A DNA stretch of 49,299 nucleotides from a virus (Duplodnaviria; Caudoviricetes). The stretch lies in the IMG/VR virus record IMGVR_UViG_3300005573_000126, positions 1 through 49,299 of that record. One strand, 5' to 3'. The position numbers were made by a program, and so were the translations under genes. Every line of letters begins with the position of its first letter. Position 1 is the first letter of the stretch. Below, in pieces: positions 8,931 to 36,040 of this stretch. The notes beneath the pieces were generated by a model, which did no database searches, was not told the DNA's origin, and worked only from the letters and a program-made list of their open reading frames with translations.

Positions 8931-9770
8931 ATGAAACAATTGAAAATAACTCGGACAATCACGTCCCGTAACGATTCTATCAATCGTTACTTTAACGAAT
9001 TGGAAAGGATTCCTGTTGAAAATCAGGAGTCTATTTATGAATTGGTGAGAGCCGGAGATAAGGAGGCGATAAACACCCTTATTGCCAACAATCTTCGGTT
9101 TGTTGTTTCTGTCGCAAAGCAGTATCAAAATCAGGGGTTGTCGTTAGACGACCTTATACAGGAGGGAAATGTTGGGTTGGTGGTAGCAGCCCAGAAATTT
9201 GACCCTTCTCGTGGGTTTAAGTTTATATCTTATGCCGTATGGTGGATAAGGCAGTCTATTCTTATGGCTATTGATACCCACAAGAGGCAGATACGTATTC
9301 CCATTAACATTCTTCGTTATTCCGGGAAGGTTGAAACTGAAATTCAAAGGATGTTGTCGGAAAACGAAATACCGACGGTTGAGGATGTAGCAAAAAACAC
9401 TGGGCTAAGTGAAAGTTTAGTCCGGTTTATAATGTACCACAAAACAAGCTATGTAAATTTAGAGGCTTCTATTCACGATGATACGGATAGCAAGGTGATA
9501 GACATTGTCGAAAACAAAAATTCACCAAGTCCGGATGACGAATATCATAGAATAAACCGCAATGAAATGATAATAAAGGCACTCAGCATGTTGTCTGAGA
9601 AGGATGCCTTAATCATCAAAAAGCGGTTTGGCATTTTAGGTGAAGAGCAAAAAAGCATTACAAGCATTGCCAGTGAGTTAAAGATAAGCAATACTGCTGT
9701 AACGACAAGATACAAGAAGGCGATTAAAAAACTGCGCAAATACGATGCGTTAAAGGAGTTTTTGAAATGA
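8931..9770 (+). CDS. phage-encoded RpoD/SigA-family sigma70 factor (Bacteroidota type, no region 1.1)
   Basis: MKQLKITRTITSR N-terminus like the Bacteroidota primary sigma; NLRFVVSVAKQYQNQGL.L.DLIQEGN.GL; FDPSRGFKFISYAVWWIRQSI. Confidence 0.95.
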   Translation: MKQLKITRTITSRNDSINRYFNELERIPVENQESIYELVRAGDKEAINTLIANNLRFVVSVAKQYQNQGLSLDDLIQEGNVGLVVAAQKFDPSRGFKFISYAVWWIRQSILMAIDTHKRQIRIPINILRYSGKVETEIQRMLSENEIPTVEDVAKNTGLSESLVRFIMYHKTSYVNLEASIHDDTDSKVIDIVENKNSPSPDDEYHRINRNEMIIKALSMLSEKDALIIKKRFGILGEEQKSITSIASELKISNTAVTTRYKKAIKKLRKYDALKEFLK

Positions 9771-18084: not shown

Positions 18085-18699
18085 ATGGATCCGGTAACCA
18101 TTGCTCAAATAGCTGCATTGCTGTCCAAAGGTGTTTCAATGGCTGGTAATGCCAGACAGAACTGGCAGTATCAGAATATGATAAACAATGAAAAATCAAA
18201 TGCCTATAACTGGTATAATGCCTTAACAAGACAGCCATATATGCAAAGAGCCGACGCACAAAGCACAATAACCCAGTTAACTGGCATGCTCAAAAAGAAT
18301 ATGAGCCAGATGGCGAACCGGTCAAGGGTAATCGGTGGAACACCTGACGCATTGAACTCGTTACAGAGCGGTGCCCAAAATACAGTAGCTAATACCGTAG
18401 GCAGAATGGCTGGCAATGCCGACCTGCAAAAAATGAGAGCATACCAGTTGCTCATGTCACGACTGAATCAGCTAAATACTATGCAGGCTGGCAGATATAA
18501 TGCTAAGATAAATTCATGGAACAACATTTCTGCCGACGCCAATCAGGTTCTTAATACCTTACTCATGTCTCAAATGGTTGGCGCTAAAGGTCTGCCAACG
18601 GGAGCAACAAATGGCATTAATATGAATAACTTGAGTAGTATTATTTACAGATACCTGCAAGGTGCACCGAAACTCAACGTACCGAAACTCATCCCATAA
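18085..18699 (+). CDS. putative DNA ejection/internal virion protein (P22 gp7-like position)
   Basis: MDPVTIAQIAALL start; rich in Q/N/A/M/G and helical; first of three genes before the portal. Confidence 0.6.
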   Translation: MDPVTIAQIAALLSKGVSMAGNARQNWQYQNMINNEKSNAYNWYNALTRQPYMQRADAQSTITQLTGMLKKNMSQMANRSRVIGGTPDALNSLQSGAQNTVANTVGRMAGNADLQKMRAYQLLMSRLNQLNTMQAGRYNAKINSWNNISADANQVLNTLLMSQMVGAKGLPTGATNGINMNNLSSIIYRYLQGAPKLNVPKLIP

Positions 18700-18711
18700 A
18701 CAATATATAAA

Positions 18712-19707
18712 ATGAACAACAACGAAGATGATGTTTTTGGTCAACTAATTAACAACTTAATTGCCAATAAGCCTACCTATAACCAGCAGGCTGCAAAAAA
18801 TTACGAGAAGGTGGCTAAAACAAGCGCCTTCCTCGATGCTATTCAATTGCTCACAAAAACACTTGGTGGCATAGGAGGCGCTACCGTAAATAGAGAAGAA
18901 CCCAATCGAGTGGTGCCTAATGCCCTCAACATGTATAACAACGATTACCAGAAATTCAAAAATGACCTCGACCGGTGGAATAGTATCTATTCAAATATAA
19001 TGCTTCAAAAACTTGCCAACGATAAATGGCAAAAACAATTTGATGCAGAACAACAATATAGAAATGCACAAATTGATATGCAAAAATTACGTACATTAAA
19101 TAGCAAAAAAATTACCACAAGCACAAAAGAACAAAAACCATTCTACACTCTTATTGATTCAAAAACAGGTACTAAACTTCACCTGCCGACACAAGGCGAC
19201 TTCGACTACCTCTGGAACCAAATACGAAATGCCTACCTTAACGGAGAATATCAAGGCAAACTTTCACAGGAAGATGACCTGTCAATGAAAAACTTTATTG
19301 ACCCTCAATTTAAAAATGAAACACTGAGAAAATCATTATTGAACAAACTATGGCTATTGCATCCGCAAATTTATAACGACCTGATTACTGGTAAAACACC
19401 ATATATACCGTTAACAAATACAAATAATTTGATGCCACAGACAAATACACCAACTCAGACAAGTAAACCAACTCAGACAAATACATCAAGTCAGACAAGT
19501 ACAATAACACAACGGCAACCGGTGGTAACTGAAAATAAACAGAAGGCAAACGCTGTTAAACAAGAACCTACACAAACAACGACGAGAACAGATACAATAC
19601 GTGGCAAGAGCGGTATAACAATGGAACAATTCCAAGACCTGATAAGACTTGGACAGAAACTACAAAGAATACAAGAAGCACAGGCAAAAAAGAAAAAAAA
19701 TAAATAG
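18712..19707 (+). CDS. putative DNA ejection/internal virion protein
   Basis: Amphipathic LLTKTLGGIGGA segment, coiled coil, T/Q-rich linker. Confidence 0.55.
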   Translation: MNNNEDDVFGQLINNLIANKPTYNQQAAKNYEKVAKTSAFLDAIQLLTKTLGGIGGATVNREEPNRVVPNALNMYNNDYQKFKNDLDRWNSIYSNIMLQKLANDKWQKQFDAEQQYRNAQIDMQKLRTLNSKKITTSTKEQKPFYTLIDSKTGTKLHLPTQGDFDYLWNQIRNAYLNGEYQGKLSQEDDLSMKNFIDPQFKNETLRKSLLNKLWLLHPQIYNDLITGKTPYIPLTNTNNLMPQTNTPTQTSKPTQTNTSSQTSTITQRQPVVTENKQKANAVKQEPTQTTTRTDTIRGKSGITMEQFQDLIRLGQKLQRIQEAQAKKKKNK

Positions 19708-19709
19708 CC

Positions 19710-22700
19710 ATGATTTATCTTGAACCTGAAAAAAACAATAATTTAATTCTTCCTTTGGAAAACAATGAGGCTGAAATTAACCTGTCATTTACAAACCAGC
19801 CAGAACAAGAACAACAGGAAGAAAGCACAACCATTCCAATACAAACAAACCAACCTCAACAACCGGTAAAAAATATTACACTGACACAACCTGTCAGTGA
19901 CAAACAAAGCAATAAACCAGAAGAAACTTATGAGGAAGGACTTACTACACCTGATATAAAAACTATCAATCACCTTTTTTCTATTACAAACAAAAAAAGC
20001 ATTGACCCCGATAACCCAGTTATTGACGAAAATACAGTAAAAAACTATTTCAACGCTTTATACCATTTAGGTAAAAATGAGTTTGGAGACCAGTTTAATC
20101 CACCTAAGGAGTTTGAAAACCTTGCTTTTGAAAAAGGTTTTGGTAAAGGTTTTAAATCCGGACTGAAACAGATTAAATATGATTTTCAATATCTTTCTCA
20201 AGAACTTAGTAAAAAGTTTGATGAAAATTTAGTATATGAACTTGACGATGATATTCGCTCAGGAATATGGGATACAAGTAAATCACCTGAACAGTTAGAA
20301 CAAGACCTGAAGTTCTTTCGTGAAAAAGAACAAGAAGAAGCTGAAAAAAGAAATCAGTTACAAAGACAACCAAGTGCCCTTTCATTTGGAGTTTCCCCTG
20401 TATTTGATACAACAAGTGCTATCAACAATCAAACTGATGAAGAAAAATTTTATGCCAAGAATGCAACCAAAACAGAACTGTGGCTGAACTTACTCAAACA
20501 GTTTGATGGTGACACCGAACAGGCAAAACAATTTCTGCATCAGTTTAAATCTTCAATGGCACCACATGAAGCCAAACAAAGAGAAATAATCAAAGAGAAA
20601 TTCAATATACCTGAAGGGAAAGGACTGTTTTATGACATAGGCAATATGGCACCACAAGTTGCGCCTATTGCTATATCAATGGCAGTTAGCCCTGTTGCCG
20701 GTTCCACTGTTTCAGGAATTTTAGGCACAGTCGTAGGTACAGCTATGGCATCAATGACAGCTGCTGATGCCTTGATGAACTACGACCAGTATATGCATGA
20801 CAAAGGTTATGCTATTGACCCAAAAGAAAGATTTGGTATTTCCATTTCAGCTGGTATTGTTGAGTATCTTACAGAAAAAATTCCTTTTGACAAGGTGTCA
20901 AAAAGACTTGTCAAAGGAACATTGATGAAAACAATTCTATCAGAAGGAGGCGAAAAAGGATTTGAGATTCTTGAAAAATATCTGCCCAAAGATTCCAGAT
21001 TGAAAGTGCTTTATAATAAAGCAATTAAACTATTAGCTGAAGGTAACAATGAAGGACTTGAAGAAGTAACCTCAGAAATAAACCAGATACTCGGTGAACA
21101 TATCTACCAAGATAAAGCAGACTGGCAGTCATTCAACGATATGGCTAATAGAATAAAACAATCCTATGTTGGTGGCGCCATGATGCGTGCTATGCTTGTC
21201 CCTGGCGAAGTTGGAATACAACATGCACAAAGAAAAATACGCTGGAACAATCAGGGTGTTAACCTTGCATCAGCAAAGGACGGTACCATTTTTGAAGTAT
21301 TAAATGTTGACTACGACAAAAATAATCCTAAAAATACAGTTTACCACGGCGAAACAAAAGATGGCAGAGAAGTCGAATATAAGGCTTCAGAACTCGACCA
21401 TTTTGTCCATTTTGAACCTGACGAAGTAAAACAATACAATGATGCCCTACAAACTGCCGATAAGGCAAAAATAGAGGCAACTAAACAAAATATCATTGAG
21501 AAACGAGTACAAAGAACTAAAGATGAAGCACTTGGTCTATTCAATAGTCTCGGAGTAAAAACCGTTGACCCCAATACCGGTAATGCTGTTGTCAAAATAG
21601 CTGATGACAAATATGGAAATAGCTGGTTGATTATTGACGAAGATGCTGATAATAACACAGCCGTAGTAGCAAAATTCAATCCGCAAACATCAGAGATTTC
21701 GGACGAGCGTAAAATGATGAATGCAAACGATTTCACCAATATTAGCATATTCGACACTGACCAGCTTGCCACCGAAATAGCAGAAAATACAAGACCAGTA
21801 GTAACTGAAGAACTCGGATTAAACCAGCCAACAGAAGAAGAACAAACACAGCAGACAAATGCTGAACCTGTTCTTCCGGTTGGAGTAGCACCCGGTAAGA
21901 CCATTACCTTCCGTAACCAAAAGTATGTTGTCAGTGAAATAAAATCTGATGGTAAAATTTACGCTGACCCAGTTGATTATGAAGCTAATGCATCAACAAT
22001 CATAACACCTGACCAGTACAAAGAAATACAAATCGAAGGTGCAAATACACAGGCTAATCAGACTGCGCCACAAGCTCAACCCACCGCCGAACAGACACAG
22101 CCGGAAGCACCCACCGCCGAACAGACACAGGGACAAACAAACACTAATCGCATATCTATTGATTTACAAGGAAATAAATTCAATGCAACAGTAAGTAATG
22201 ATGGCACCATTATTATTGATAATGTGTTTGAAGGTGCAACCGGTAAAGAAGAAGCTGAACAATTAGTTCATGCACTCAATAAAGAATATGACAATAACCC
22301 AGCTTTTGAATTAGTCAAATTGCCAAAACAAACCGATAACACAATTGAAAAACCAAAATATCAAATAATTGCTAAACCGAATCAAAATGAAAAACCTCAA
22401 GAACAACCTGCATCAACTAATAAAATTACAGGAACAGGGAACATTGAAACCCAAAAACAAAATAAAACCGAGAAAACTGAACAAAAAGGACAACCTGAAA
22501 CCAAAACCGAGATAAAAAACGTAGCCAATACTGAGAAAAAAGAAACCAAACCTCAACAGGAAGTAACAAAGACTTATGATGAACAAGTAAATGACTTCAT
22601 TAATGACTTTTTAAAGAAACATAACGAAGATGTAAACTGGTTTCTTGTTTATCGTGGTTTGAGGCATAATGATACCAACGACATAAGATATTATCTTGAT

Positions 22701-25700
22701 AAAGGTAAACTTTCATTGGCTGAATTGAAAGAATTTATTGACGAATATAATAATCAGAATTTTGCTAAGGAAGATGTAAGTAAAATTATGAATACTACAT
22801 ACGAAAGGGTGAAGGAATCTTACGAAGAAAGTTTAAAGAAAGAAGCCAAACTTCAGTCTGAAAAAGAAGCAAAGGAAACTACGCCAAAAGCAAAAGAAGC
22901 TGCACCGACAATGACTGAAAAACAGCCTGAAACAAAGGCTGAAACGAAAAATGTTGTTTTCACTGAAGAAGCATACGAGGCTGCACTAAAAAGGCTCAAG
23001 GAAAGATTTGGTAGATTAAATGCCGGTATTGACCCCACAATTCTTTCTGACGGTATAATCGTTGGAGGTTTCTACGTTGAAAAAGGTATTCATAAATTTG
23101 CCGAATGGTCTAAAAAGATGCTTGAGGCTGTTGGCAAAGAAATACAACCATATCTTAAATCAATATACCGTGCTGTAAAAACTTGGCCGGGCATGGAAGA
23201 ATATGCCAAAAATATGGACAGCGATGAGTATATTGAAAAGTACAATTTTGAACAGGAAGAGAAGCCGGAAACTCAGTTGGAAACTCAGATGGAAACTCAA
23301 AATAAACAAGAAAGTTTAAAAGATATTACAGAATTAAAAGAAGAATCAAAGAGTGAAGTTCCAAAAGACAAAACCAAAGTATATATTGACAATGAACCGG
23401 TTGACTTTAAAGATGCTGTAATGGCATACTTTCAACTTAAAAATTTGTTGAATGTAGAAATAAAGAACAAGAAGGCAGCCAAAGATGAAAATTACTCATT
23501 TTATAATAGCGAATTGGAAACATTAGGTGAAGCTATTAAGAAGTATGCTAATGCTATTGATGAGTATCTTAAAAATAACGAAGCACCAGACCCGGAATTA
23601 GAAAAACAATACACTGAATCAAGAAAAAAGATTACTGATAAGTCACCATTGTTAGAGTACAAACAAACCAAACATACAAAAACCGGTGAAACACTTCATG
23701 TTGGTATTATCAAATTTAAAGTCGTCAATTACAAAGACCTTGTTAGAGCTGTAAATGAAATTGACCCAAAGGCATATTATTCAACATTTGTCAAAGGGTT
23801 TATATTCAGCAATGAAGAACTTGCAAAGAAAGCAATCGAAACTATTCATGCAATAGATTATACGATTGATACCGAAGGTATATTCACACCGACGGTAGAA
23901 AAAGCTGCAAAAGAAACTTATCAGGTAGCAAAAGATTTACTTAATAATAAGGATAAGGTTCTTGTAATTAAGGTACCAAAAAATGAAAATACTAAGGCTG
24001 AAATCAAATATGAACATCCTTTAACCGATTCGGATAGATTATTGAAATATCCCAATTCTGAAGGAGATATATACTCATACACATTTTATAAAAATGGCAA
24101 ACTTTCATATACAATGGAATTTGCCGTATTGCCTAACGAAGGAGTAATATATCCCGTAAGAGTTGACGAACAAAAAAATGACGGTAAAATTGAACATGGA
24201 GAATGGATATTGAAGGGAGTTATCTATCAAGGGTATGATGGTGGAAATTATGAGTCGGCAATTTCTGCAATAAAACAAACATTCATAATAGCTAAAAAAT
24301 ACGGATATGGAAACGAAGAAAAACCCGAAACTAACCCCGAAGCAGTGGGACAACGTGTACAGATTATTGAAGGTCAAGAAAAGGCTGTTAGAGACGAAGC
24401 GGAAGCTCGAAGCAACGAGGCAAGAAATTCTGGCAAAACAGAAAGACTGACAGAAAGACTGAATGAAGTCAAGCAAAATCTGAATGAAGTCGAGCAAAAG
24501 GTTGACAATCTCATTAATAAAATAGTAAACGAACTTGAAAATATGGGTATTAGCGAAAAAAATACCCCAAAAGGTACTAACTTTGAACAAGAAACCAATA
24601 AACCTGAAAGCAATGGACGACCTGAGGTATCACCCACTGTTCATCAGCCTGCTAATATGGAGCAGGGAGAACAATCAAGGAATATTCATGAACAAAACAC
24701 CAGAGGAGGTGCAGAAAAGACTAACGGAGAAAGTAAACCAAGCACTGGTTTACGAGGAAATGCTGAGGGAAAAGGGAATACCGGAAGACCTGATACCGGA
24801 ACTGGTGAACGGTTATCTAATGCCGGAACCCGAAGTGGAGGAGAAGCCATATCCGAAGGCGAAGTTCCTAAAAATAGTCAATCAAATTTATCAGGGGAAT
24901 CTGCCAACAGCAATGCTGTAAAAGAGAATCACATTATTGCACCTGATGACGTAATTGTCCCCAAAGGCAAAAAGGCTAAAATGCGTGCCAATATTGAGGC
25001 TATACGCATTTTAAAACAGTGCCAGAAAGAGAATAGACAAGCTACGCCAGAAGAAAAGAAGAAATTAGCCCAATATACCGGTTGGGGTGGTTTGGCTGAT
25101 ATATTCAACTCAGATGAATATGCAGAAGAATACAGAGAGTTAAGTGAATTACTTACATATAAAGAACTTGGTTCAATAAAGAAATCAACCATAAATGCCT
25201 TTTATACTTCTAAACCGGTTATACAAGCCATGTGGAAAATGGCAGAAAAACTTGGTTTTAAAGGAGGCATTGTTCTGGAGCCGGCAGCCGGTGTCGGTCA
25301 TTTTATGGGATTTGTTCCAGAAAACTTACGTAGCAAAACTAAATTCAAGGCTGTTGAACTTGATAAAATTACCGGTGAAATAACCCAACTTCTTTACCCA
25401 AATGCCGATGTATCGGTTACTGGATTCCAAGATGTCAATGTTAAACCAAATAGCATTGACATGGCAATTACAAACGTTCCTTTCGGCAATATTCGAGTAT
25501 ATGACCCCAATAACAAAGACATTTCCAGTAAATTCAATCTTCACAATTATTTCATTGCCAAGATAGTACGTGCCTTAAAACCGAACGGTATTGCCATTGT
25601 AATTACAACGTCAAGTACAATGGACAATGGCGGACAAGGTACTGACTTCAGAAAATGGTTAGTCAATGAGGGAAATGCTGAACTTGTTGATGCTATCCGG

Positions 25701-28700
25701 TTGCCAAATAATGCGTTTAAAGATAATGCCGGTACGGAGATAACAACCGATATTCTTATTATACGTAAACTTGATACAGGAGAAACAGCCCAAAACAATT
25801 TCATCAACATAGAAAAGGTCGGAGAAGGTAAAGTAAATGACAAAGTAATACCTATCTATGTTAATGAATTTTTTGCCCAACACCCTGACAGAGTTCTTGG
25901 TAAAATGGCTATTGCTGGTGAAGTTGGTTCTGGTGCACTTTATTCTGCTGAATCAACAACTTGCGCACCTGTTCCTGATATTGATGTGGAAGAAAAATTA
26001 AATGAAATTGCTGATAAAATAAAACCGGTTGAGCATATAAGTACCACTGAAATTACACCTCAAATACAGGCTGCAAAAGAAGAAGAATCTAAAGACAAAC
26101 ATAAAGAAAATGAACTGTTTGTAAAAGGTGGGAAAATCTATCAAAAGGTAAATGGTGAATTAGTTGAATATGCAGATGTTGGAAAGAATGTTGCCAACAA
26201 AATTAGGGTATTACAAAGCTATAAATCAATTTCAGATTCATTACATAAACTTATTGAGTTAGAAAACAATCCTGAATCAAGCGAAAAAGAAATTGAGGCT
26301 GAACGTAAAAGGTTAAATGACCTTTACGATGACTTTGTAAAGAAATATGGCACTCTGAATAATAACAGAGCAGTAAGCTGGCTTTCTGATGATGTTGATT
26401 TTTATCGTATAGCAGCCATAGAAAATGTTACAACAGAAATTACGTATGATTTACAAAATCAAAAGGTTAAAAAGAATGTAAAGATTACGAAATCAGATAT
26501 TTTCAATAAGCGAGTAATCAATCCCAAAGCCATTGAAACAAAGGCAGAAACAATAGACGATGCTATAAAATTTTCATTTACTCATACCGGCAAATTTGAT
26601 ATTGATTATATATCTAAATTACTTGGCAAGAACAAGTATGACGTTATTCAGGAAATGCTTGATAAGGGATACATATTTGAGAATCCTGAAACAGGTGTTT
26701 ATGAATATGCCGATGATTATTTGTCCGGTAATGTGGTTAGAAAACTTGATTTTGCTAAGAATGCTGCCAAAGACAATCCGAAATATGAAGCAAATGTAAG
26801 AGCACTTGAAAAAGTTCAGCCTAAAAGAAAGTCTATAAATGAAATAGGCTTTAAACTCGGTTCTACATGGATTGACCCTGCGATAGTAGAAAGATGGGCA
26901 TTTGAATATTTTAACTATCCTTCATACTATAAATTTTCAGTAAAATATATACAAGATGTAGGATGGGTAGTTGACTACAATAAGCATGCAACCTCACCAC
27001 AGATTGCCTCGTCTGAAGTTAAAGGCATGTCACCTTTTGCCTTGTTGGAACATAAGCTGAATAATCAGAGTACAGTAATAAGAAAAAAGGTTGAAAACAA
27101 TAAGTTTGAACAAGACAAAGAGGCAATGTCGCTTGCTGAAGCAAAGAAGCAAGAATTTGAAAATAGTTTCAAAGAATGGTGTTATAAAAATGAAGATGTA
27201 TATACTAAACTTGAAGATAAATACAATGAAATTTATAATAGCACTATTCCGAGAAAAGATATTCCCAAAACAGAATATTATCCCGGAGCAAATACCAATA
27301 TTAAATTAAGAGAGCATCAAAAAAGAGCTGTTGATAAATGCCTTGCCGGTTCAACACTTATTGCTCATCAGGTAGGTACCGGCAAAACATATACGCTCAT
27401 TACGGCTGCGATGGAAATGCGTAGGCTTGGTTTAGCAAGAAAGCCTATGATTGTTGTGCAAAAAGCTACATTACCACAGTTTGTGGAATCTATTTATAAA
27501 TTGTATCCTAATGCAAAAGTATTGGTGCCGAGAGATAAGGATATGTCTGCATCTGAAAGGAATAAATTCCTTAACAAAATAGCGTATGGCGACTATGATA
27601 TTGTTGTTGTTACACATGACAATTTAAGATTAATACCAGATAAACCTGAAAGACTTGAATTATATATTCAGGAACAAATTGATAGATTAAATGAATTGAA
27701 ACAAGAATCAAATAATGATAGGAATACTATAAGAGAAATTGATAATCAGATAAAGCAATGGCAAAATATTGGTGGAAAAAAGAAAAATAAAAAGGGCGCA
27801 ACTTCTAATGAAGAATATGCAGCCCAAGAAATACCAATAGGTAATGTAAAACAAAATTCAAAAGAAGAGATTAGGATTGAAGAAAGTATTAAAAAACAGG
27901 CTGGTAGAAGAACTGCTAATGTGTTCTATTTTGAAGATTTAGGTATTGATGCCCTGCTTATTGATGAAGCACATACATACAAACGTCTTGGTTTTATTTC
28001 AAAACTTAATCGAATAAGAGGCATTGACAAATCAAAGAGCCAAAAATCATTGAGTGCCCTGATGAAAGTCAGGTACATACAAGAAAAGAAAAATGGCAAA
28101 AATGTCGTAATGGCTACCGGAACACCAATAAGTAATACAGCAGCCGAAATATGGACTTTCATGTATTACTTAATGCCGGATAAGCTGAGAGAATTTGGCA
28201 TGTACACATTTGATGCCTTTGCTTCTAACTTCGGAGATATTTCAGAATCAATTGAACTTGGAACCAATGGTAAATTAAGAATTGTTACAAGATTCAAAAA
28301 TTATCACAACCTTAATGAGTTAAGAAAAATATTTGGTCTAATAGCCGATGTAGCATTAACAAAAGATATTCCGGAATTAAAAGAAGGAATTGGAACACCG
28401 TCGGTTGAAATTAAGCCATTTGAAAAGGTTATAATTCCTTATGAATCTGAACCACTCAAAAACATAATGAATAGAATAATTGAAACATTGAGGATATGGG
28501 AAAAAATGAGTGGTGGCGAAAAAATGAAATTGCGTCATATACCCCTTGTAATGTTTACAAGAGCAAAACAAGCTGCCATTGATGTTAGATTGTATGATTC
28601 AAGTTTACCTGATGACCCCAAAAGTAAAGTTAATATTGCAGTAGGTAAGATATACGACATTTACAAAGAAACTGATTCATACAAAGGAACTCAGCTTGTA

Positions 28701-31700
28701 TTTTGTGACACATATATGAGTTCTGATGGTAAATTCAACCTATACAATGATATAAAAGACAAACTTGTAAAAAAAGGTATTCCCGCCAATGAGATAGCAA
28801 TCATAACCGAATGGGATAGTGAAGCTAAAAGGAAGGCATTATTTGAAATGGTTAATCAAGGAACCATACGTGTTGTTATAGGAAGTACAGAAAAATTGGG
28901 TATTGGTGTTAATGTGCAAGATAGACTTAATGCTATACATAATCTTGATGCGCCTAACAGACCAATGGACTTTGAACAAAGAATGGGACGTATAGTAAGG
29001 CAAGGGAATATGCATTTACAAATGAACAAACCAGTACGTATAATAGCATACGGAGTTGAAAAAACTCTCGATGCCAACGTTTATCAAAGACTTGCTATCA
29101 AACTGAATTTCATACATAGTATTATGGATTTCAAAAGCAATGTTGATAACGTTGAAGAAGAAGACGATATATCAGGACTTGATTTCAATTCTATGATGGC
29201 TGAACTTACCGGAGATGAAAAAATGATGGTATATGTTCAGAAAAAGAACGAATTACAAAAACTAATATTACAGAAAAAAGGATTTGAATCACAAAAGAAA
29301 CGTATAAAAAATGAAGTACCGGTATTACAAGCCAATTTGGAACATAGAAAAGAAATGTCAGAATATTATGAGAAATTGTTAAAAAATTTAGACCCAGACA
29401 ATGTAACCATAATATTTGAAAATAAAAAAGTTAACTTAAAGGATGATAAACAGATTGAAAAAATAGAGAACGAAATAGCTAAACAAAGAGGAAGTATATT
29501 TGAGTTTGTTATAGAAGATGAACCCTTCACTGTGATTAGTAATGGTGATACCTTTTTGGTTAAATCTAAGTTTTTCACATCTGAATACGTATCTTTAAAA
29601 ACCTTTTTGAAAAATGTTGGCGGTAGGTTAAAAACAACTTATGAATATTATATAAGGGATAATAAAGCTGCAATAATCAAGTTAAAAGATACGTTAAAAT
29701 CTTATGAAAGCATTAAGGACGATGTATTCCCATATGAGGAGAAACTGAATAAATTGAAGGAAGAAGTAGCTATTTTGCAAAATGAATTGTCAGAAAAAGA
29801 TAAAGAAAATACAGAGGAGGCACAATCTATTGATGATTTGGAAAGCATTGAAAGAGAATTAGAACAATCTGAAGACAATGAGGAAGATAATGAGGCGGAT
29901 AATGAAGCGGATAATGAGGAATCTGATTCGTCAATTTATATGAAGGTTTCAGACCAGCCTATGTATGCAGCAGTTCAAGATGCAGTTACCGGCGAAATAA
30001 TTGACGAGGACGAAGACCTTAATACGTCAAAAACGACCCAAACTATTGAAGAAAATCTAAATCATAAAAAGGAACAAGTCAAAGCTATTGTTACAAATAT
30101 GGCAAATAAGTTACATGATAAAGCCAATATGCCAAAGTTTGAAGTCGTAAGAAATGAAGTAGAATTGATTCAAGCTATGCAAAGAAATGGCGAATCCCCT
30201 GAATCAATAAAGTATATGATACAATTTCATTCAAAAGGAATGACTATCAATGGATTAAATACCAAAAAAGCCATTTACTTTGTTTCGGATAATATGGAAA
30301 ATAGCAGCGATGTTATTACTACATTCATTCATGAAATTATTGGTCACCAGGGATTTAGGGCTATATTCAAAACAACAGAGCAATATGCTAAATTTGGGAA
30401 ATATGTTTACGATATTGTAGGAGAAGAAGAGATTAAAAGGGTGGTTCCAAGTGAATATTGGAATAAGAGCAAACATGAACTCGGAATTGAATACGTAGCG
30501 TATATTTCCGAAAAGGTTGTAAAACAGAAACAGCTTACCAGCAATGAAAGAACTATATGGCAAAAGATAGTAGATGCCATACTTGATTTTTTGAGGACAA
30601 ACTTTAATTTAAGTAGCAAATGGAGTATTAATCTCGAAAATAAACTGAGAGACGAAATTCCTAATTTCATTTACGATGCAATACAAGCATCATACGATGT
30701 GGCAGTAAAAGGCATGGATGCAGATAAAGCAAATAAATGGATGACGGGAAGACTTATTGCAAGGGATGTAAACGCATTCAAAAAAGGTGAAAGGGCTATT
30801 TTATATACTGAAAGAAGGGATATGCCTTACCTAAGCATTAAAGAATCAAAAAGCGAGTGGAAAGAAGAACAGCCATCAAATATGAATCGCTTCAAATTTA
30901 ATGGCAAAGATTCATATATGGGAATTGTTCATGTTCCATCCGGTACTGTTCTCGGAACCATAAGCTGGGAAGAATACAAGGATGCCAATGCGAGGCACAT
31001 GGGATATATGACAAAAATGGATTCAGGTTATGTGGGTTCACCTGATTTTCAAAGATTCCTTGTTGACTCAGACGGCAAAGTAATAGGTTTCATTGAACCG
31101 CTTCCTGAATCAACGACACGCAAAATTGAAAAGCAGATTGAAATAAAGAACCAAGGTGAAGATACATTCGCAAGAATTGGGAATAAGCCACAGTTTACTG
31201 AAGAGGAAGAATTTGAACATGAGAAAACAAAATTTATTGATAACAATTGGAAAAAGTTTTTAGAAGCGGTTCAGGATAGAATGCTTTCTGTAAAGTATAT
31301 GCAAGACCTTGTAAAGGCAAGAGGAGGGGTAATTGATGAATCAAGCAACCCATACGATGAAGAAAATCTTAGTATTTCAAGGGCAAAAGCAGCTATTGAA
31401 AAGTATAATAAAAATCAATTCAATAATCTATTAAAAACAATATCTGATTTTAGTCAAAAGTATCGTATTGATATTGATGAAATTAATGAATACCTTATAA
31501 ACAAGCATGCACCTGAAAGAAATGAGTATCTTGAAGCAAAATACAATGTTAAAAATGGTTCCGGAATAGCAACAGAAGATGCTGAACAATTTGTTGAAGA
31601 ATTTGAAAGCGACAAAGATGCTGCCGATATTGAAAAATTATGGTCTGCTGTCCGTGAAGCTACAAAATTTAGTATTGATAAAGCAATGGAATACGGCTTT

Positions 31701-34010
31701 ATAAATGAAGCTGTACATGATGAAATACTTGGAAGATACCAATACTATGTACCATTAAGAGGTTGGCAGCTTGACGAAAACGACGATGCAAACATTTATG
31801 ATTATATAACGTCAGATTTAAAGCCACTCAATAACCCATTAAAGACAGCTAAAGGGAGACAAACTGTATCTGATAGCCCACTTAAATACATATCCTCGAT
31901 GGCAAATACTACCATAGTGGTTGGAGAAAAGAACCGAATCAAACAAGCTGCATTCAGGTTGATAAACAAGAATTTGGGAATGAAAGACCTTTTCACTGCC
32001 AAAAAAGTTTATACCGTGATGAATCCGACTACCGGAGAAGTTTACGAAACAATTGAAAAGCCTGAAAACGAAGATGATATTATAGATTTTGAAAAATCTA
32101 AAAAACATTTTAATAAAAAACCTATACAACTGGCAAAACAACATGAGGTTGAAGTTTATGTAAATGGTCAAAAATATATACTCATTTTCAGTGACCCCGA
32201 TGTCGCTAATGCTATAAATAAGAAAAATTTTGTAGCACCTTCCAATATCTTTTGGGAAAAATATGTTGGCATTACAAGATGGCTTTCGACAAACTTTACA
32301 GCAAAAAGTCCGGCATTTATACCGGTCAACTTTATACGTGACTTAGGCTACGCATTAATTTCAAAGGAAATAAATCCTGAGTACAAAGATGTTGATTTTG
32401 CCAAACATATCATTCCGGCAATGGCAGCTACATGGAAATATTTATCTGGCAAAGCCAATCCGGCATTGAACAAATATGACAGGTATTATCAAATGTTTTT
32501 GAAGGAAGGAGGCGAAACTGGATTTGTACATTTGAAAGAGATTGAAGATATTGAAAAAGAAATACAAAGCAATATCAAAAAGTTACGTGGAGATGGCAGC
32601 AAAATAGATAAAATGCTTATCGGCAAAATAGGTAAATCACTTGGAAGTTTACTTGATAAATCGGCTGTTGCAAGTGAAAATGCTTCTCGATTTGCCATAT
32701 TCGTTGGTATGATGGAGGCTGGTAAATCTGCACATGAAGCTGCCATTGCTGCTAAAAACATTACTGTTAACTTTAACAGAAAGGGAGTTTATAGTAGCGT
32801 TTTCGGAGGTTTGTATGCCTTTTTCAACGCAGCAGTTCAAGGTGCAGCTAATATGGTAGGTCTGGCAAAAAAAGATAAGCTAAAATTTGCACAGGTATCC
32901 GCTATAACAACATCACTTGGCTTTATGATGACAATGTTAGCTTATTGGAGAGCTACAAAAGACCAAGAAGACGAAAAGAAAATAAAGGATAATCCGTATT
33001 TTTCTGTTGGTGACTACATTAGGGATAACTTCCTGACTATCTCGGTTGGAGACAAAGTTATAACTATTCCTATGCCACAAGGGTTCAGGGCTTTTTATGG
33101 TCTCGGCGTTGAAATGGCAATGTCAATGTTAGGAGCAAAACCGGTAGATAAATCAGTGAAGAATATGTTTGGTAATTTCTTTGAAGCAATGTCACCTATA
33201 AACTTTACCAATATTACTAATAAAGAAGGTGAACTAACTATAAGACCGTTTGTTCCAACCGTATTTATACCGTTCTATGATATTGCACAGAATGAAACAT
33301 TTTCCGGTAATAGAATTTATAACGAACCTTTCGACAAGAAACTTGAAAAATACGCAGCCGATTACAACCAAGCACTTGACCGAGTTAATCCTATTTTAAA
33401 ATCTGTTTCAGAGGCTATGTTCAGAATGGCAGACTATGATACCTCTATTAATAGTAAATATAAATTGACAGATACAGGGGTACAAAAGATACCTGATTTT
33501 ATTGATTGGAACCCTTCAAAGATTGAATATATTATTGAATACTATTTGGGTGGTAGAGGTAAATTCTGGAATGATGCCATGAAGACAGCATCATCACTCA
33601 TTGCTGTTGCTAAAGATGCGGTACAAGGCAATAAAAAGGAAGGAGGTCTTTTTGATGATATTGATGTTAATCATATCCCAATTGCTCAGCGATTTATAAG
33701 GAAACCATATTACACGACTACGAATCTTAAATATAATCAGATAAGAGAAGAGATGGGAATATATCAGTACATTCGGTCACAATACAAGTCTAATAAAGAC
33801 TTTGAAAATTATATGAATACCAAATTCCATGACGTAAATTGGAAGCAGAAAGAAATAATATTTAACATGTATGACCGGATGATAAACAACTTGTATAACA
33901 ATATACTTACAAAAGCTAAAGATGCTGCCGATGCGGAACTTATCATGAGCCAGATTAGTGAGATGAAGGAAGCCTGTGTAAATCAAATTGAAAAACTTGA
34001 ACAAAAATAA
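19710..34010 (+). CDS. 4766-aa DarB-like large polyvalent virion protein: N6-adenine MTase + SNF2 helicase + zincin-like metallopeptidase + LPD38-like C-terminus
   Basis: YTGWGG (25074), NAFYT, VLEPAAGVGHF, ITNVPF (~25470); AHQVGTGKT (~27370), IDEAH (~27960), ATGTP, QRMGRIVRQGN (~28980); HEIIGH (30330); NITVNFNRKG...LYAFFNA...IPMPQGF (32750-33090). Confidence 0.9.
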   Translation: MIYLEPEKNNNLILPLENNEAEINLSFTNQPEQEQQEESTTIPIQTNQPQQPVKNITLTQPVSDKQSNKPEETYEEGLTTPDIKTINHLFSITNKKSIDPDNPVIDENTVKNYFNALYHLGKNEFGDQFNPPKEFENLAFEKGFGKGFKSGLKQIKYDFQYLSQELSKKFDENLVYELDDDIRSGIWDTSKSPEQLEQDLKFFREKEQEEAEKRNQLQRQPSALSFGVSPVFDTTSAINNQTDEEKFYAKNATKTELWLNLLKQFDGDTEQAKQFLHQFKSSMAPHEAKQREIIKEKFNIPEGKGLFYDIGNMAPQVAPIAISMAVSPVAGSTVSGILGTVVGTAMASMTAADALMNYDQYMHDKGYAIDPKERFGISISAGIVEYLTEKIPFDKVSKRLVKGTLMKTILSEGGEKGFEILEKYLPKDSRLKVLYNKAIKLLAEGNNEGLEEVTSEINQILGEHIYQDKADWQSFNDMANRIKQSYVGGAMMRAMLVPGEVGIQHAQRKIRWNNQGVNLASAKDGTIFEVLNVDYDKNNPKNTVYHGETKDGREVEYKASELDHFVHFEPDEVKQYNDALQTADKAKIEATKQNIIEKRVQRTKDEALGLFNSLGVKTVDPNTGNAVVKIADDKYGNSWLIIDEDADNNTAVVAKFNPQTSEISDERKMMNANDFTNISIFDTDQLATEIAENTRPVVTEELGLNQPTEEEQTQQTNAEPVLPVGVAPGKTITFRNQKYVVSEIKSDGKIYADPVDYEANASTIITPDQYKEIQIEGANTQANQTAPQAQPTAEQTQPEAPTAEQTQGQTNTNRISIDLQGNKFNATVSNDGTIIIDNVFEGATGKEEAEQLVHALNKEYDNNPAFELVKLPKQTDNTIEKPKYQIIAKPNQNEKPQEQPASTNKITGTGNIETQKQNKTEKTEQKGQPETKTEIKNVANTEKKETKPQQEVTKTYDEQVNDFINDFLKKHNEDVNWFLVYRGLRHNDTNDIRYYLDKGKLSLAELKEFIDEYNNQNFAKEDVSKIMNTTYERVKESYEESLKKEAKLQSEKEAKETTPKAKEAAPTMTEKQPETKAETKNVVFTEEAYEAALKRLKERFGRLNAGIDPTILSDGIIVGGFYVEKGIHKFAEWSKKMLEAVGKEIQPYLKSIYRAVKTWPGMEEYAKNMDSDEYIEKYNFEQEEKPETQLETQMETQNKQESLKDITELKEESKSEVPKDKTKVYIDNEPVDFKDAVMAYFQLKNLLNVEIKNKKAAKDENYSFYNSELETLGEAIKKYANAIDEYLKNNEAPDPELEKQYTESRKKITDKSPLLEYKQTKHTKTGETLHVGIIKFKVVNYKDLVRAVNEIDPKAYYSTFVKGFIFSNEELAKKAIETIHAIDYTIDTEGIFTPTVEKAAKETYQVAKDLLNNKDKVLVIKVPKNENTKAEIKYEHPLTDSDRLLKYPNSEGDIYSYTFYKNGKLSYTMEFAVLPNEGVIYPVRVDEQKNDGKIEHGEWILKGVIYQGYDGGNYESAISAIKQTFIIAKKYGYGNEEKPETNPEAVGQRVQIIEGQEKAVRDEAEARSNEARNSGKTERLTERLNEVKQNLNEVEQKVDNLINKIVNELENMGISEKNTPKGTNFEQETNKPESNGRPEVSPTVHQPANMEQGEQSRNIHEQNTRGGAEKTNGESKPSTGLRGNAEGKGNTGRPDTGTGERLSNAGTRSGGEAISEGEVPKNSQSNLSGESANSNAVKENHIIAPDDVIVPKGKKAKMRANIEAIRILKQCQKENRQATPEEKKKLAQYTGWGGLADIFNSDEYAEEYRELSELLTYKELGSIKKSTINAFYTSKPVIQAMWKMAEKLGFKGGIVLEPAAGVGHFMGFVPENLRSKTKFKAVELDKITGEITQLLYPNADVSVTGFQDVNVKPNSIDMAITNVPFGNIRVYDPNNKDISSKFNLHNYFIAKIVRALKPNGIAIVITTSSTMDNGGQGTDFRKWLVNEGNAELVDAIRLPNNAFKDNAGTEITTDILIIRKLDTGETAQNNFINIEKVGEGKVNDKVIPIYVNEFFAQHPDRVLGKMAIAGEVGSGALYSAESTTCAPVPDIDVEEKLNEIADKIKPVEHISTTEITPQIQAAKEEESKDKHKENELFVKGGKIYQKVNGELVEYADVGKNVANKIRVLQSYKSISDSLHKLIELENNPESSEKEIEAERKRLNDLYDDFVKKYGTLNNNRAVSWLSDDVDFYRIAAIENVTTEITYDLQNQKVKKNVKITKSDIFNKRVINPKAIETKAETIDDAIKFSFTHTGKFDIDYISKLLGKNKYDVIQEMLDKGYIFENPETGVYEYADDYLSGNVVRKLDFAKNAAKDNPKYEANVRALEKVQPKRKSINEIGFKLGSTWIDPAIVERWAFEYFNYPSYYKFSVKYIQDVGWVVDYNKHATSPQIASSEVKGMSPFALLEHKLNNQSTVIRKKVENNKFEQDKEAMSLAEAKKQEFENSFKEWCYKNEDVYTKLEDKYNEIYNSTIPRKDIPKTEYYPGANTNIKLREHQKRAVDKCLAGSTLIAHQVGTGKTYTLITAAMEMRRLGLARKPMIVVQKATLPQFVESIYKLYPNAKVLVPRDKDMSASERNKFLNKIAYGDYDIVVVTHDNLRLIPDKPERLELYIQEQIDRLNELKQESNNDRNTIREIDNQIKQWQNIGGKKKNKKGATSNEEYAAQEIPIGNVKQNSKEEIRIEESIKKQAGRRTANVFYFEDLGIDALLIDEAHTYKRLGFISKLNRIRGIDKSKSQKSLSALMKVRYIQEKKNGKNVVMATGTPISNTAAEIWTFMYYLMPDKLREFGMYTFDAFASNFGDISESIELGTNGKLRIVTRFKNYHNLNELRKIFGLIADVALTKDIPELKEGIGTPSVEIKPFEKVIIPYESEPLKNIMNRIIETLRIWEKMSGGEKMKLRHIPLVMFTRAKQAAIDVRLYDSSLPDDPKSKVNIAVGKIYDIYKETDSYKGTQLVFCDTYMSSDGKFNLYNDIKDKLVKKGIPANEIAIITEWDSEAKRKALFEMVNQGTIRVVIGSTEKLGIGVNVQDRLNAIHNLDAPNRPMDFEQRMGRIVRQGNMHLQMNKPVRIIAYGVEKTLDANVYQRLAIKLNFIHSIMDFKSNVDNVEEEDDISGLDFNSMMAELTGDEKMMVYVQKKNELQKLILQKKGFESQKKRIKNEVPVLQANLEHRKEMSEYYEKLLKNLDPDNVTIIFENKKVNLKDDKQIEKIENEIAKQRGSIFEFVIEDEPFTVISNGDTFLVKSKFFTSEYVSLKTFLKNVGGRLKTTYEYYIRDNKAAIIKLKDTLKSYESIKDDVFPYEEKLNKLKEEVAILQNELSEKDKENTEEAQSIDDLESIERELEQSEDNEEDNEADNEADNEESDSSIYMKVSDQPMYAAVQDAVTGEIIDEDEDLNTSKTTQTIEENLNHKKEQVKAIVTNMANKLHDKANMPKFEVVRNEVELIQAMQRNGESPESIKYMIQFHSKGMTINGLNTKKAIYFVSDNMENSSDVITTFIHEIIGHQGFRAIFKTTEQYAKFGKYVYDIVGEEEIKRVVPSEYWNKSKHELGIEYVAYISEKVVKQKQLTSNERTIWQKIVDAILDFLRTNFNLSSKWSINLENKLRDEIPNFIYDAIQASYDVAVKGMDADKANKWMTGRLIARDVNAFKKGERAILYTERRDMPYLSIKESKSEWKEEQPSNMNRFKFNGKDSYMGIVHVPSGTVLGTISWEEYKDANARHMGYMTKMDSGYVGSPDFQRFLVDSDGKVIGFIEPLPESTTRKIEKQIEIKNQGEDTFARIGNKPQFTEEEEFEHEKTKFIDNNWKKFLEAVQDRMLSVKYMQDLVKARGGVIDESSNPYDEENLSISRAKAAIEKYNKNQFNNLLKTISDFSQKYRIDIDEINEYLINKHAPERNEYLEAKYNVKNGSGIATEDAEQFVEEFESDKDAADIEKLWSAVREATKFSIDKAMEYGFINEAVHDEILGRYQYYVPLRGWQLDENDDANIYDYITSDLKPLNNPLKTAKGRQTVSDSPLKYISSMANTTIVVGEKNRIKQAAFRLINKNLGMKDLFTAKKVYTVMNPTTGEVYETIEKPENEDDIIDFEKSKKHFNKKPIQLAKQHEVEVYVNGQKYILIFSDPDVANAINKKNFVAPSNIFWEKYVGITRWLSTNFTAKSPAFIPVNFIRDLGYALISKEINPEYKDVDFAKHIIPAMAATWKYLSGKANPALNKYDRYYQMFLKEGGETGFVHLKEIEDIEKEIQSNIKKLRGDGSKIDKMLIGKIGKSLGSLLDKSAVASENASRFAIFVGMMEAGKSAHEAAIAAKNITVNFNRKGVYSSVFGGLYAFFNAAVQGAANMVGLAKKDKLKFAQVSAITTSLGFMMTMLAYWRATKDQEDEKKIKDNPYFSVGDYIRDNFLTISVGDKVITIPMPQGFRAFYGLGVEMAMSMLGAKPVDKSVKNMFGNFFEAMSPINFTNITNKEGELTIRPFVPTVFIPFYDIAQNETFSGNRIYNEPFDKKLEKYAADYNQALDRVNPILKSVSEAMFRMADYDTSINSKYKLTDTGVQKIPDFIDWNPSKIEYIIEYYLGGRGKFWNDAMKTASSLIAVAKDAVQGNKKEGGLFDDIDVNHIPIAQRFIRKPYYTTTNLKYNQIREEMGIYQYIRSQYKSNKDFENYMNTKFHDVNWKQKEIIFNMYDRMINNLYNNILTKAKDAADAELIMSQISEMKEACVNQIEKLEQK
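24613..24921 (+). CDS. putative overprinted 102-aa protein in the +1 frame of the giant gene (DUF1896/TnpV-like)
   Basis: Globular-looking amphipathic helical sequence; leader aataaacctgaaagcaATG; the main frame here is a low-complexity G/E/N/S/R linker. Confidence 0.6.
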   Translation: MDDLRYHPLFISLLIWSRENNQGIFMNKTPEEVQKRLTEKVNQALVYEEMLREKGIPEDLIPELVNGYLMPEPEVEEKPYPKAKFLKIVNQIYQGNLPTAML

Positions 34011-34015
34011 ACGCC

Positions 34016-36040
34016 ATGAAACGACATGATGAAGTTGACTTCAATCTTTTCAAAGATTCGGTTTTCACCAGTAAGGCTAAAACCGATGGTCTTACTAATG
34101 ATGGTGAAATAATTGCCAAATGGGAAGTCAAAGACGAAGATTACAAACTGTTGGAAACGGCAAGGGTGTATTATGAAGCATTGAGGGATAACAGAGAACG
34201 CCGGAGAAGAGCTTTAAAATATACTCGTGGTAAACAATGGAGTGATGTAATTGAAGACCCTCAAAAGCCGGGAACATACATTACCGAAGAAGATTATCTT
34301 AGAAGGCAGGGACGTATTCCATTGAAGCAGAATCAGATTATTCAGATGCTTAATAACAGAATAGGACAGTTCCGGCAATCACAGTCAAAAACAATCTTTA
34401 TTGCAAGAGCAAATGAAAAATCATTGGAAGCTGATGTAATGACAAATGCACTTGAATATGTATCGTATATCAACAATCTTGATGAAAAAGATGCCAATAG
34501 TTATCGTGAGTTTGGTTTATGTGGCGTTATTTGCCATAAAATAAGATATAAATGGTTTGAAAGCCGAAATATGTATGATGTTTACGTTGAACCAGTAAAC
34601 TTTAACCGGTTATTCTTTAATACCAATATCGAAAGCCCATTCGGAGAGGATATAAATTTCATCGGAGAAATCATTGATGCACCACTTGACGATGTCATTG
34701 CTGCATTTGCCAAATCTAAAATAGAGGAAAATATCATCAGAAAATACTATGAGGCTTACATAGATGAAGCAACAACGCTTGCAAATAAACCGGGATATGA
34801 ACGGTATGAGAATATTGATTTTTTCTTTTCCAATGACAGGAGCTTATGCCGATTATTTGAAATTTGGTATAAGAAGGCTGAATGGAAAACATACGTTCAT
34901 GATTATGCTGATGGAACGTATGTTAAAACCGATATGACACCTGAAGAAATTGATTTTGAAAATCAAAAAAGAATTGAACTTGGGTTAAATAACGGTCTTG
35001 ATTTGGAAAATATTCCATTACTTGAATATGAGGAACGTTACGAAAACACATGGTATGTAAAATACCTGACACCGGACGGTCATTGCTTGTATGAAGGTGA
35101 AACACAATACATTCACGAGGAACATCCCTACGTTATAAGATTCAGCCAAATGATTGATGGGGAAATTTGGGGATGGATAGAAGACGTTATTGACCAGCAG
35201 AAATATATTAACAGGCTTATTATTCTGATTGATTTTGTAATGTCATCATCAGCTAAAGGTGTTTTAATGATTCCAAAAGATACCATTCCGGCAGGTATGA
35301 CACCCAAAGATTTTGCCGATGCGTGGGTATCATATAATGGTGTGATTGTTTATGACCCCAAACCACATGGACAGATACCGCAACAAATTTCAATGAACTC
35401 AACCAATTTTGGTGTACATGAATTGCTTGCTTTGCAGATGCAATTGATGCAGGATATTTCAGGAATACATCCTGCTGTTCAGGGGAAAGAAGCTAAATCA
35501 GGTACGCCGGCATCACTATATGCCCTTGAAGCACAAAATGCAAATACCAACATACTTGATTCGATATTACAGTTCAAAGACTTTAAACAAAGGAGAGATT
35601 TTAAAATTGCACGGGTTATTAAACAGTTCTATAAAGAAAAACGGTTCCTTGCTATTAGTGGCAATATCTACAATGAACAATCAAAAATTTATGACCCAGA
35701 AATAATGCAAGACGTGGATTTTGAAGCAATAACCACTACAAGCACAAACAATACAGTTTACAAGTCAATGATGGACGACTTGTTGCTAAAGTTGCTTGAA
35801 ATGAATCAAATTGATATTGAAATCTTCCTTGAAAATGCATCTTTGCCTTATGCAAAACACATATTGGAAGAAATAAGAAAGAAGCAACAGCAAATGCAAG
35901 ATACTCAGGCAGGAGTGGAACAAGCAGGAATACCTCAATTATCAGAAGAACAATATCAACAAATATTACAGGGAGCTAATCCTCAGGCTATAAATATGGC
36001 TAAACAAATGTTAAACCCTAAAACTCAAAGTTATGCCTAA
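34016..36040 (+). CDS. portal protein (P22-like)
   Basis: Y..G.QW, P...NQI, HPY, G..ED.ID.Q..IN, ISGI...QG, SG; Q-rich C-terminal barrel; 674 aa. Confidence 0.88.
   Translation: MKRHDEVDFNLFKDSVFTSKAKTDGLTNDGEIIAKWEVKDEDYKLLETARVYYEALRDNRERRRRALKYTRGKQWSDVIEDPQKPGTYITEEDYLRRQGRIPLKQNQIIQMLNNRIGQFRQSQSKTIFIARANEKSLEADVMTNALEYVSYINNLDEKDANSYREFGLCGVICHKIRYKWFESRNMYDVYVEPVNFNRLFFNTNIESPFGEDINFIGEIIDAPLDDVIAAFAKSKIEENIIRKYYEAYIDEATTLANKPGYERYENIDFFFSNDRSLCRLFEIWYKKAEWKTYVHDYADGTYVKTDMTPEEIDFENQKRIELGLNNGLDLENIPLLEYEERYENTWYVKYLTPDGHCLYEGETQYIHEEHPYVIRFSQMIDGEIWGWIEDVIDQQKYINRLIILIDFVMSSSAKGVLMIPKDTIPAGMTPKDFADAWVSYNGVIVYDPKPHGQIPQQISMNSTNFGVHELLALQMQLMQDISGIHPAVQGKEAKSGTPASLYALEAQNANTNILDSILQFKDFKQRRDFKIARVIKQFYKEKRFLAISGNIYNEQSKIYDPEIMQDVDFEAITTTSTNNTVYKSMMDDLLLKLLEMNQIDIEIFLENASLPYAKHILEEIRKKQQQMQDTQAGVEQAGIPQLSEEQYQQILQGANPQAINMAKQMLNPKTQSYA

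Follow-up and report, generated by a model that had tools for sequence, protein, structure and literature searches.

The open reading frame that runs in the +1 frame of the giant DarB-like gene of this phage, immediately ahead of the methyltransferase domain, is almost certainly a real gene, as judged from comparative sequence analysis. It is likely a divergent Bacteroidota-phage member of an arrangement, apparently widespread and unpublished, in which a gene of the TnpV/DUF1896 type is nested in a DarB-type gene.

Table 1. Features of the giant gene and its nested reading frame (positions in the window)
Feature	Position	Strand	Details
Gene of the 4766-aa giant DarB-like polyvalent protein (host frame)	19710..34010	+	phrog_10089 DarB-like antirestriction, SNF2/helicase and LPD38 matches
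A-rich translation-start leader, like the phage's own leaders without Shine-Dalgarno motif	24593..24612	+	7.04 bits
Linker of the giant protein, rich in G, S, N and R (the nested gene in a reading shifted back by one base)	24612..24929	+
Nested gene, 102 aa, acidic, predicted all-helical, TnpV/DUF1896-like	24613..24921	+	frame +1 of giant gene
DNA methyltransferase domain, directly after the nested stop codon	24930..25913 (end approximate)	+	phrog_11801, phrog_37568 from residue 1754
SNF2-type helicase/ATPase domains	27300..29006	+	residues 2531-3099
LPD38 domain	32988..33596	+	residues 4427-4629
P22-like portal gene, directly downstream of giant gene	34016..36040	+

The giant gene and its phage

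The window, that is the whole stretch of 49,299 nucleotides that was analysed, is a linear virus record, 81% complete by the record's own estimate, in which portal, terminase, major head and endolysin genes are present. Because the portal gene follows directly, the giant gene is placed among virion genes, and there it unites a methylase and an SNF2 helicase in one reading frame, as DarB-like genes do. LPD38 is typical of phage polyvalent proteins according to the available text of PMC5512222. Packaging in the virion and protection from restriction were shown for DarB of phage P1 (PMC9024508, in the part available), and packaging was shown for gp69 of JC1 (PMC9024508 and PMC9144972, likewise in part). 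The host of the phage is likely one of the Bacteroidota, because the gene leaders have no Shine-Dalgarno motif and the closest methylase among the genome loci listed is that of Dysgonomonas (47%). The phage also encodes a sigma-factor-like protein (8931-9770) and a separate small DNA methyltransferase (3002-3655). No useful Pfam or PHROG match was obtained for an 850-aa ORF on the minus strand (14852-17404) or for the two ORFs preceding the giant gene, which include 18085-19707 (+).

Reading frame, start signals and selection

A sequence-only reading of the window had reported a 102-aa product hidden in the +1 frame before the methyltransferase, and its coordinates and translation were exact. 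The ORF begins with the ATG at 24613 and ends with a TAA at 24921, in the +1 phase relative to ORF 19710-34010, and its product has a pI of 5.0. The main frame regains hydrophobic residues at 24930, where the methyltransferase begins, and the coincidence of the nested stop with the methyltransferase start was thus described correctly. Over the nested ORF the giant protein (approximately residues 1635-1737) contains 16.5% G, 11.7% S, 11.7% N and 6.8% R with no F, Y or W, in agreement with the atypical G/R/S/N/E linker that had been noted.

The stop-free stretch that holds the nested ORF has 130 codons and is the longest in the shifted plus-strand frames of the giant gene, the next having 76; the antisense frames contain longer ones, up to 205 codons. 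When the giant protein without the linker was recoded, an ATG ORF of at least 102 codons appeared in 65 of 1000 runs, and ORF length was dropped as proof of a nested gene because null genes match it at this rate. A 130-codon open stretch appeared in 20 of the 1000, and with the linker kept the corresponding figures were 353/1000 and 226/1000. With the linker peptide fixed under synonymous recoding, the +1 frame was open in 5584 of 20000 runs, a null that starts from a peptide which the overlap has itself shaped. Recoding of the small protein produced a mean of 9.4 main-frame stops and left the main frame open in 1 of 20000 runs. Furthermore, T was found at none of the 37 third positions where it would make a main-frame stop, compared with 619 of 1740 elsewhere. 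The main frame across the overlap is actively kept open.

A leader matrix was built from 34 gene leaders chosen from the ORF list of the window, none of which (0/34) contains a Shine-Dalgarno motif. The leader of the nested ATG scored 7.04 bits. Each of the 364 other ATGs inside the giant gene scored lower, and 10 of the 34 real leaders scored higher; the second in-frame ATG of the nested ORF (M26) scored -3.85 bits. The leader that had been quoted and its look-alikes at 1333, 12130 (minus strand) and 42541 are all present in the sequence. In homologues, a Shine-Dalgarno motif precedes 79 of 119 hidden ATGs and 257 of 3389 control ATGs. The nested gene has an initiation signal of its own, and its translation likely begins at this internal ATG. 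Upstream of it, the +1 frame stays open for a median of only 14 codons. A restart in the main frame ahead of the methylase was found in 8 of 130 cases, and because it is so rare the linker is likely translated through.

Selection was assessed with 59 independent pairs, 6 of which were left out for low identity. In the remaining 53, the differences per main codon position were 0.238, 0.142 and 0.119 over the overlap versus 0.084, 0.053 and 0.302 over the methylase. The frame-specific check suggested with the original reading came out in its favor, with pN/pS at 0.37 in the nested frame against 1.55 in the main frame and 0.17 in the methylase, and the nested protein was better conserved than the main-frame product in 52 of the 53 pairs. 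As this alignment was made in the nested frame, a gap-free repeat was carried out with 31 pairs. The differences at the three nested codon positions numbered 126, 83 and 336, and the silent and non-silent changed codons were 298 and 157 in the nested frame versus 46 and 405 in the main frame.

Close strains were represented by contigs of four sequencing runs, and no RNA run was among the sequencing runs listed. Of the 15 overlap changes listed, 10 fall silently on third codon positions in the nested frame and 11 alter the giant protein, and 8 of the 14 changes listed for the methylase fall at main third positions. In one more distant contig, read by eye, the nested frame continues with a W-L-x-E-Y-Q-P motif like the family consensus. 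Taken at the sequence level, these patterns indicate that purifying selection acts on the nested frame, both in relatives and in close strains. Since the small gene and not the linker is the constrained one, it is probably the older frame and the linker of the giant protein probably a by-product. Just upstream of the nested start, at 24430-24540, the close strains also differ by deletions of 12 and 21 nt that keep the frame and by closely spaced substitutions; no change in the start region itself is among those listed.

Recurrence, family and genomic settings

Ten of 125 phage records with a methylase match were sampled. A +1 ORF lies upstream of the methylase in nine, and in the tenth the match lies further upstream. 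Seven of the nine ORFs share an N-W-x-x-x-A-R-x-H-W-K-E-type pattern, that of Bcep22 is a diverged form, and that of BKO1-TP3 looks unrelated. In none of the ten records, which include Bcep22, VvAW1 and SopranoGao, is it annotated as a separate gene. Cultured phages with such an ORF include POI1126, Itty13 and Mwe-JY07. In the PBC5 record (L009:1168-1476) the TnpV-like domain is the in-frame C-terminus of gp22 and the giant gene is split there, which may reflect a frameshift or a sequence error. The annotated genes of the RefSeq record of Itty13 (L012) are, over this stretch, on the strand opposite to the DarB-like frame, a likely misannotation.

A larger set of 80 viral loci, chosen by methylase, was reduced to 60 clusters at 80% identity and, after one with a short main frame was skipped, to 59. 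A locus was counted as positive if an ATG ORF of 60 or more residues ended within -200 to +90 nt of the methylase start. A +1 ORF occupied this slot in 52 of the 59 giant genes compared with 116 of 865 control windows, as had been expected of homologous giant genes, and a +2-frame ORF in none of the 59. The small ORF lies wholly within another open, conserved gene in a shifted frame, as a nested gene does. When the search was made with the small ORF, 75 loci were obtained; 73 contain a methylase, and in 72 of these the ORF is nested in the +1 frame upstream of it.

The best matches of the window protein among 73 viral ORFs are from the loci with the closest methylases, with E values (computed for 80 targets) of 5.5e-6 to 8.5e-4. 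A profile of 13 relatives, built with the window left out, scored the window protein at 31.4 bits, whereas 1000 shuffles reached at most 9.8 bits and the next best of 455 window segments 5.5 bits. A profile from distant members only gave it a weak 8.9 bits, below one unrelated segment. Profile matches occurred at 59 of 80 loci of the first viral set, a count with some circularity, since these loci also supplied the profile, at 32 of 44 in a second viral set and at 45 of 80 in a metagenome set. A profile search of 1.84 billion representatives yielded 2022 clusters at E <= 0.001, and ten that were looked up were unnamed or hypothetical and mostly on short contigs. Some called proteins carry the domain within products of 200-370 aa.

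Other small ORFs, unrelated in appearance, are also found in the slot before the methylase. A second family comprises +1 ORFs of about 70 aa (L030:2696-2908, L064, L082, L089, L283, L288), of which the member tested had no Pfam match, and a third comprises +1 ORFs of 55-65 aa (L027:2657-2854, L028, L067, L083, L267, L268); further types occur at L057/L079/L270/L274 and at L004. A second nested +1 ORF with cysteine motifs accompanies the TnpV-like one at L051:2381-2614, where it had no Pfam match, and at L049:2717-2884. By this reading of the ORFs, some giant genes hide two genes.

The window protein itself had no match in Pfam or PHROGs, no TnpV match was listed for it up to E 1, and it falls below the Pfam cut-offs of TnpV (PF14198, 27 bits) and DUF1896 (PF08989, 25 bits). 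A word-indexed protein search gave no match and tblastn of phages nothing usable. The sole locus obtained with it from viral contigs (L001) was rejected as a chance match in an unrelated ORF, and designed helical repeats, the only matches at E < 0.001 in a sequence search of solved structures, were discarded. Twenty-two of 39 aligned family members match TnpV at E <= 0.1 (best 7.3e-9), and through such intermediates the window protein is homologous to TnpV at the superfamily level. No residue is invariant in 131 sequences, the most conserved being L33 (90%). The median pI of the family is 5.2, and 83 of the 131 members are acidic.

A structure model built from the 131-sequence alignment was confident and all-helical (pLDDT 87.5; helices 8-20, 22-25, 30-53, 61-69 and 82-92), in line with the earlier impression of a folded helical product. 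Its best match among 48161 chains, and the only one with Z >= 5, was 2apl (PG0816; Z 6.3, next 4.7), with an rmsd of 1.9 over 61 aligned residues (residues 7-73). We take 2apl to be the structure representing DUF1896. The model thus appears to share an N-terminal helical fold with 2apl, at a Z score that is modest for a helical protein. A language-model search with the window protein returned DUF1896 as the top lead (0.75), and one with a homologue returned unnamed clusters and a weak TnpV lead. A weak DUF1896 profile comparison (probability 10%, E 0.003) had the same register as the fold match. Because the 2apl match agrees with the language-model lead, the profile register and the gene position, TnpV and DUF1896 likely share one fold. 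Of the checks suggested for the family, the structural comparison thus gave 2apl, and Foldseek searches of the PDB and of viral models found nothing at E <= 0.001. The proposal of a DUF1896/TnpV kind holds in that relatives match TnpV and the modelled fold matches 2apl, but not to the extent of either Pfam cut-off, and the window protein is likely a remote relative that belongs, strictly speaking, to neither family.

In conjugative-type elements of Firmicutes, TnpV-type ORFs (PF14198, Tn4451-type) are nested, as here, in the +1 frame of giant ArdC-N/methylase/SNF2 genes, there 0.5-3 kb upstream of the methylase; the TnpV genes that have been described, however, stand alone, and the window protein is linked to them only via intermediate relatives. 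Among 80 genome loci selected by methylase, the small gene was nested in the +1 frame in 51 and outside the frame in 3, the 5' part was cut off in 19, and 7 had no profile match with the whole 5' part in view. As TnpV is itself nested in most of the conjugative elements examined, nesting is no peculiarity of phage virion proteins.

The nested gene lies unannotated under SNF2/helicase genes in Virgibacillus and C. perfringens plasmids. Another eight loci were sampled from 2050 matching plasmid records. The plasmids of Campylobacter and Gordonia contain nested +1 ORFs to which the profile has no match, that of S. salivarius has a separate unrelated gene, and no nested ORF was found at the Agrobacterium, E. 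coli and Phocaeicola loci (3 of the 8). On a Bacteroides fragilis plasmid, separate metallopeptidase, DUF4116 and DUF1896 genes are followed by the methylase. DUF1896, which has about 70 more C-terminal residues than the window protein and is a separate gene in this one case seen, is thus directly upstream of a methylase-SNF2 module. On an Acaryochloris plasmid a separate TnpV gene overlaps the start of the SNF2 gene by 8 nt. The sequence-only reading had placed the relatives as separate genes upstream of methylase-SNF2 genes, which is true of these two plasmids, whereas the conjugative elements examined mostly have them nested in +1. Its further idea of fusion by read-through finds the expected unfused state in the same plasmids, but the two unfused examples are in phase +2, unlike the nested +1 forms, so that fusion must have involved more than losing a stop codon.

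Homologues also occur as ordinary annotated genes. Stand-alone TnpV genes adjoin a recombinase or a MobQ relaxase, and in the stretches fetched around them no methylase-helicase gene lies directly downstream. In Streptococcus suis, mobilisable elements that carry TnpV have the snf2 gene of conjugative elements as their main insertion site (PMC9815147, available text), which may connect to the link between TnpV and SNF2. The genome of phage P1 has no family member. The identities of the small protein and the methylase correlate (rho 0.67, 122 loci); linkage accounts for this correlation, which was therefore not taken as a sign of co-evolution.

Possible role, alternatives and significance

We propose that the small acidic protein, predicted to be helical, would bind the methylase-SNF2 module of the giant protein and keep this module soluble but without activity while the phage is being produced, up to the packaging of the giant protein and its delivery into the next host. 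That it serves the module as a dedicated partner in some role, presumably by binding, is probable; for the specific role of inhibitor-chaperone the probability is put at roughly 45%. The small gene stays with the module both as a separate gene and in the nested state. A protein that is module-linked and acidic, has no invariant residue and occupies a replaceable slot would fit a binding partner required at the site of enzyme production. Counting against this reading are the solitary TnpV genes with no methylase-helicase gene next to them downstream in the stretches fetched, phage P1, whose DarB functions without a family member, the Agrobacterium and E. coli plasmid homologues with no nested ORF, and the 7 of 80 genome loci without a profile match. 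Complex prediction with residues 1738-2480 of the giant protein returned an uninformative score of 0.00. As to origin, an upstream gene may have been fused to the methylase-helicase gene by read-through of the small partner gene between them, with the G/S/N/R linker as a by-product. The unfused operons suggest such a fusion across the small gene, the linker probably being the new frame.

The same co-location with the module would be seen if the protein were an adaptor for loading or delivery into the capsid or conjugation channel, or an activating subunit that travels with the enzyme, which we regard as unlikely. Ulx of P1 is listed as aiding DarB localisation in the available text of PMC9024508, and Bcep22-like phages are without the P1 accessory proteins, which leaves a role to fill (PMC9144972, in part). 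However, Ulx was ruled out as a homologue (best -0.8 bits), one family would have to serve capsids and conjugation systems, which are unrelated machines, and the small gene adjoins the enzyme rather than the variable N-terminal parts. Somewhat less likely again is a protein that acts alone, as an anti-defence factor, DNA mimic or recombination/excision factor, and is nested merely since its neighbors fused across it. The phage copies are deep in the virion region and not by an integrase, the gene accompanies the methylase-SNF2 module in phages, on plasmids and in chromosomal elements, and the fold predicted for it consists of helices only, whereas Xis is a winged-helix protein. Independent action would nevertheless agree with the stand-alone TnpV genes beside recombinases on mobilisable elements and with the acidity of 83 of 131 members. 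TnpV is moreover credited by postulate with excision or integration in the accessible parts of PMC3158075 and PMC9815147, in the former with excision by likeness to lambda Xis.

The two remaining alternatives concern expression. Ribosomal frameshifting into the +1 frame, giving a shortened giant protein that ends in the small domain, is improbable. It would account for the C-terminus of PBC5 gp22 and for the domain within 200-370-aa called proteins, but PBC5 is 1 of 73 and possibly a sequence error, the frame is open only briefly upstream of the ATG, and that ATG is the gene's own, preceded in 79 of 119 homologues by a Shine-Dalgarno motif and here by the top-scoring leader. We find it barely credible that there is no second gene and that a low-complexity linker merely happens to leave the frame open. 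The 5584 of 20000 open recodings and the absence of Pfam, PHROG or word-indexed matches to the window protein are compatible with this, yet that null is conditioned on a peptide shaped by the overlap; protein-level conservation, silent-site bias and start signals all favor the +1 frame, and annotated homologues exist.

Fully nested same-strand genes are generally considered rare in bacteria and phages. Known pairs are comS inside srfAB, phiX174 B inside A, and Rz1 inside Rz, in each of which a small gene with its own start lies inside a larger gene on the same strand, as here. The present pair differs in that the host frame over the overlap is an unconstrained linker, that unfused forms survive, and that the pair is distributed over many phyla, in phages, on plasmids and in chromosomal elements. 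The nesting of Rz1 is described in the available text of PMC9144972. Like the giant gene here, P1 DarB is a methylase-helicase of the DarB-like class with a small accessory neighbor, but ulx is a separate gene lying downstream and the partner here is nested inside. DarB is packaged and works in P1, although that phage has no family member (PMC9024508, in part). The polyvalent proteins of PMC5512222 combine, as here, methylase, SWI2/SNF2 ATPase and LPD38 in one invader-delivered polypeptide; in its main text, as available, overlap, TnpV and linker never occur. A literature search, mainly of open-access main texts, returned no description of the nested gene.

The pair recurs in phages, plasmids and chromosomal elements of Bacteroidota, Pseudomonadota, Bacillota and others, and ties two families without a function, TnpV and DUF1896, to one enzyme module. 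The small protein is a candidate control element for DarB-type anti-restriction, the mechanism of which is poorly known, and fusion across a gene that is retained would be a growth route of giant polyvalent proteins. Insertions and deletions in these linkers would strike two genes at once. More speculatively, and with a probability that we consider low, the slot before the methylase may be a built-in off-switch cassette of DarB-type machines, filled by the TnpV/DUF1896 superfamily (more than 2000 clusters), replaceable by small proteins of unrelated kinds, and hidden in glycine/arginine linkers; stand-alone TnpV on mobilisable elements would then be pirated copies that tame or exploit the methylase-remodeller of a helper. 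If this off-switch reading is true, other G/R linkers of polyvalent proteins would hide further partner genes.
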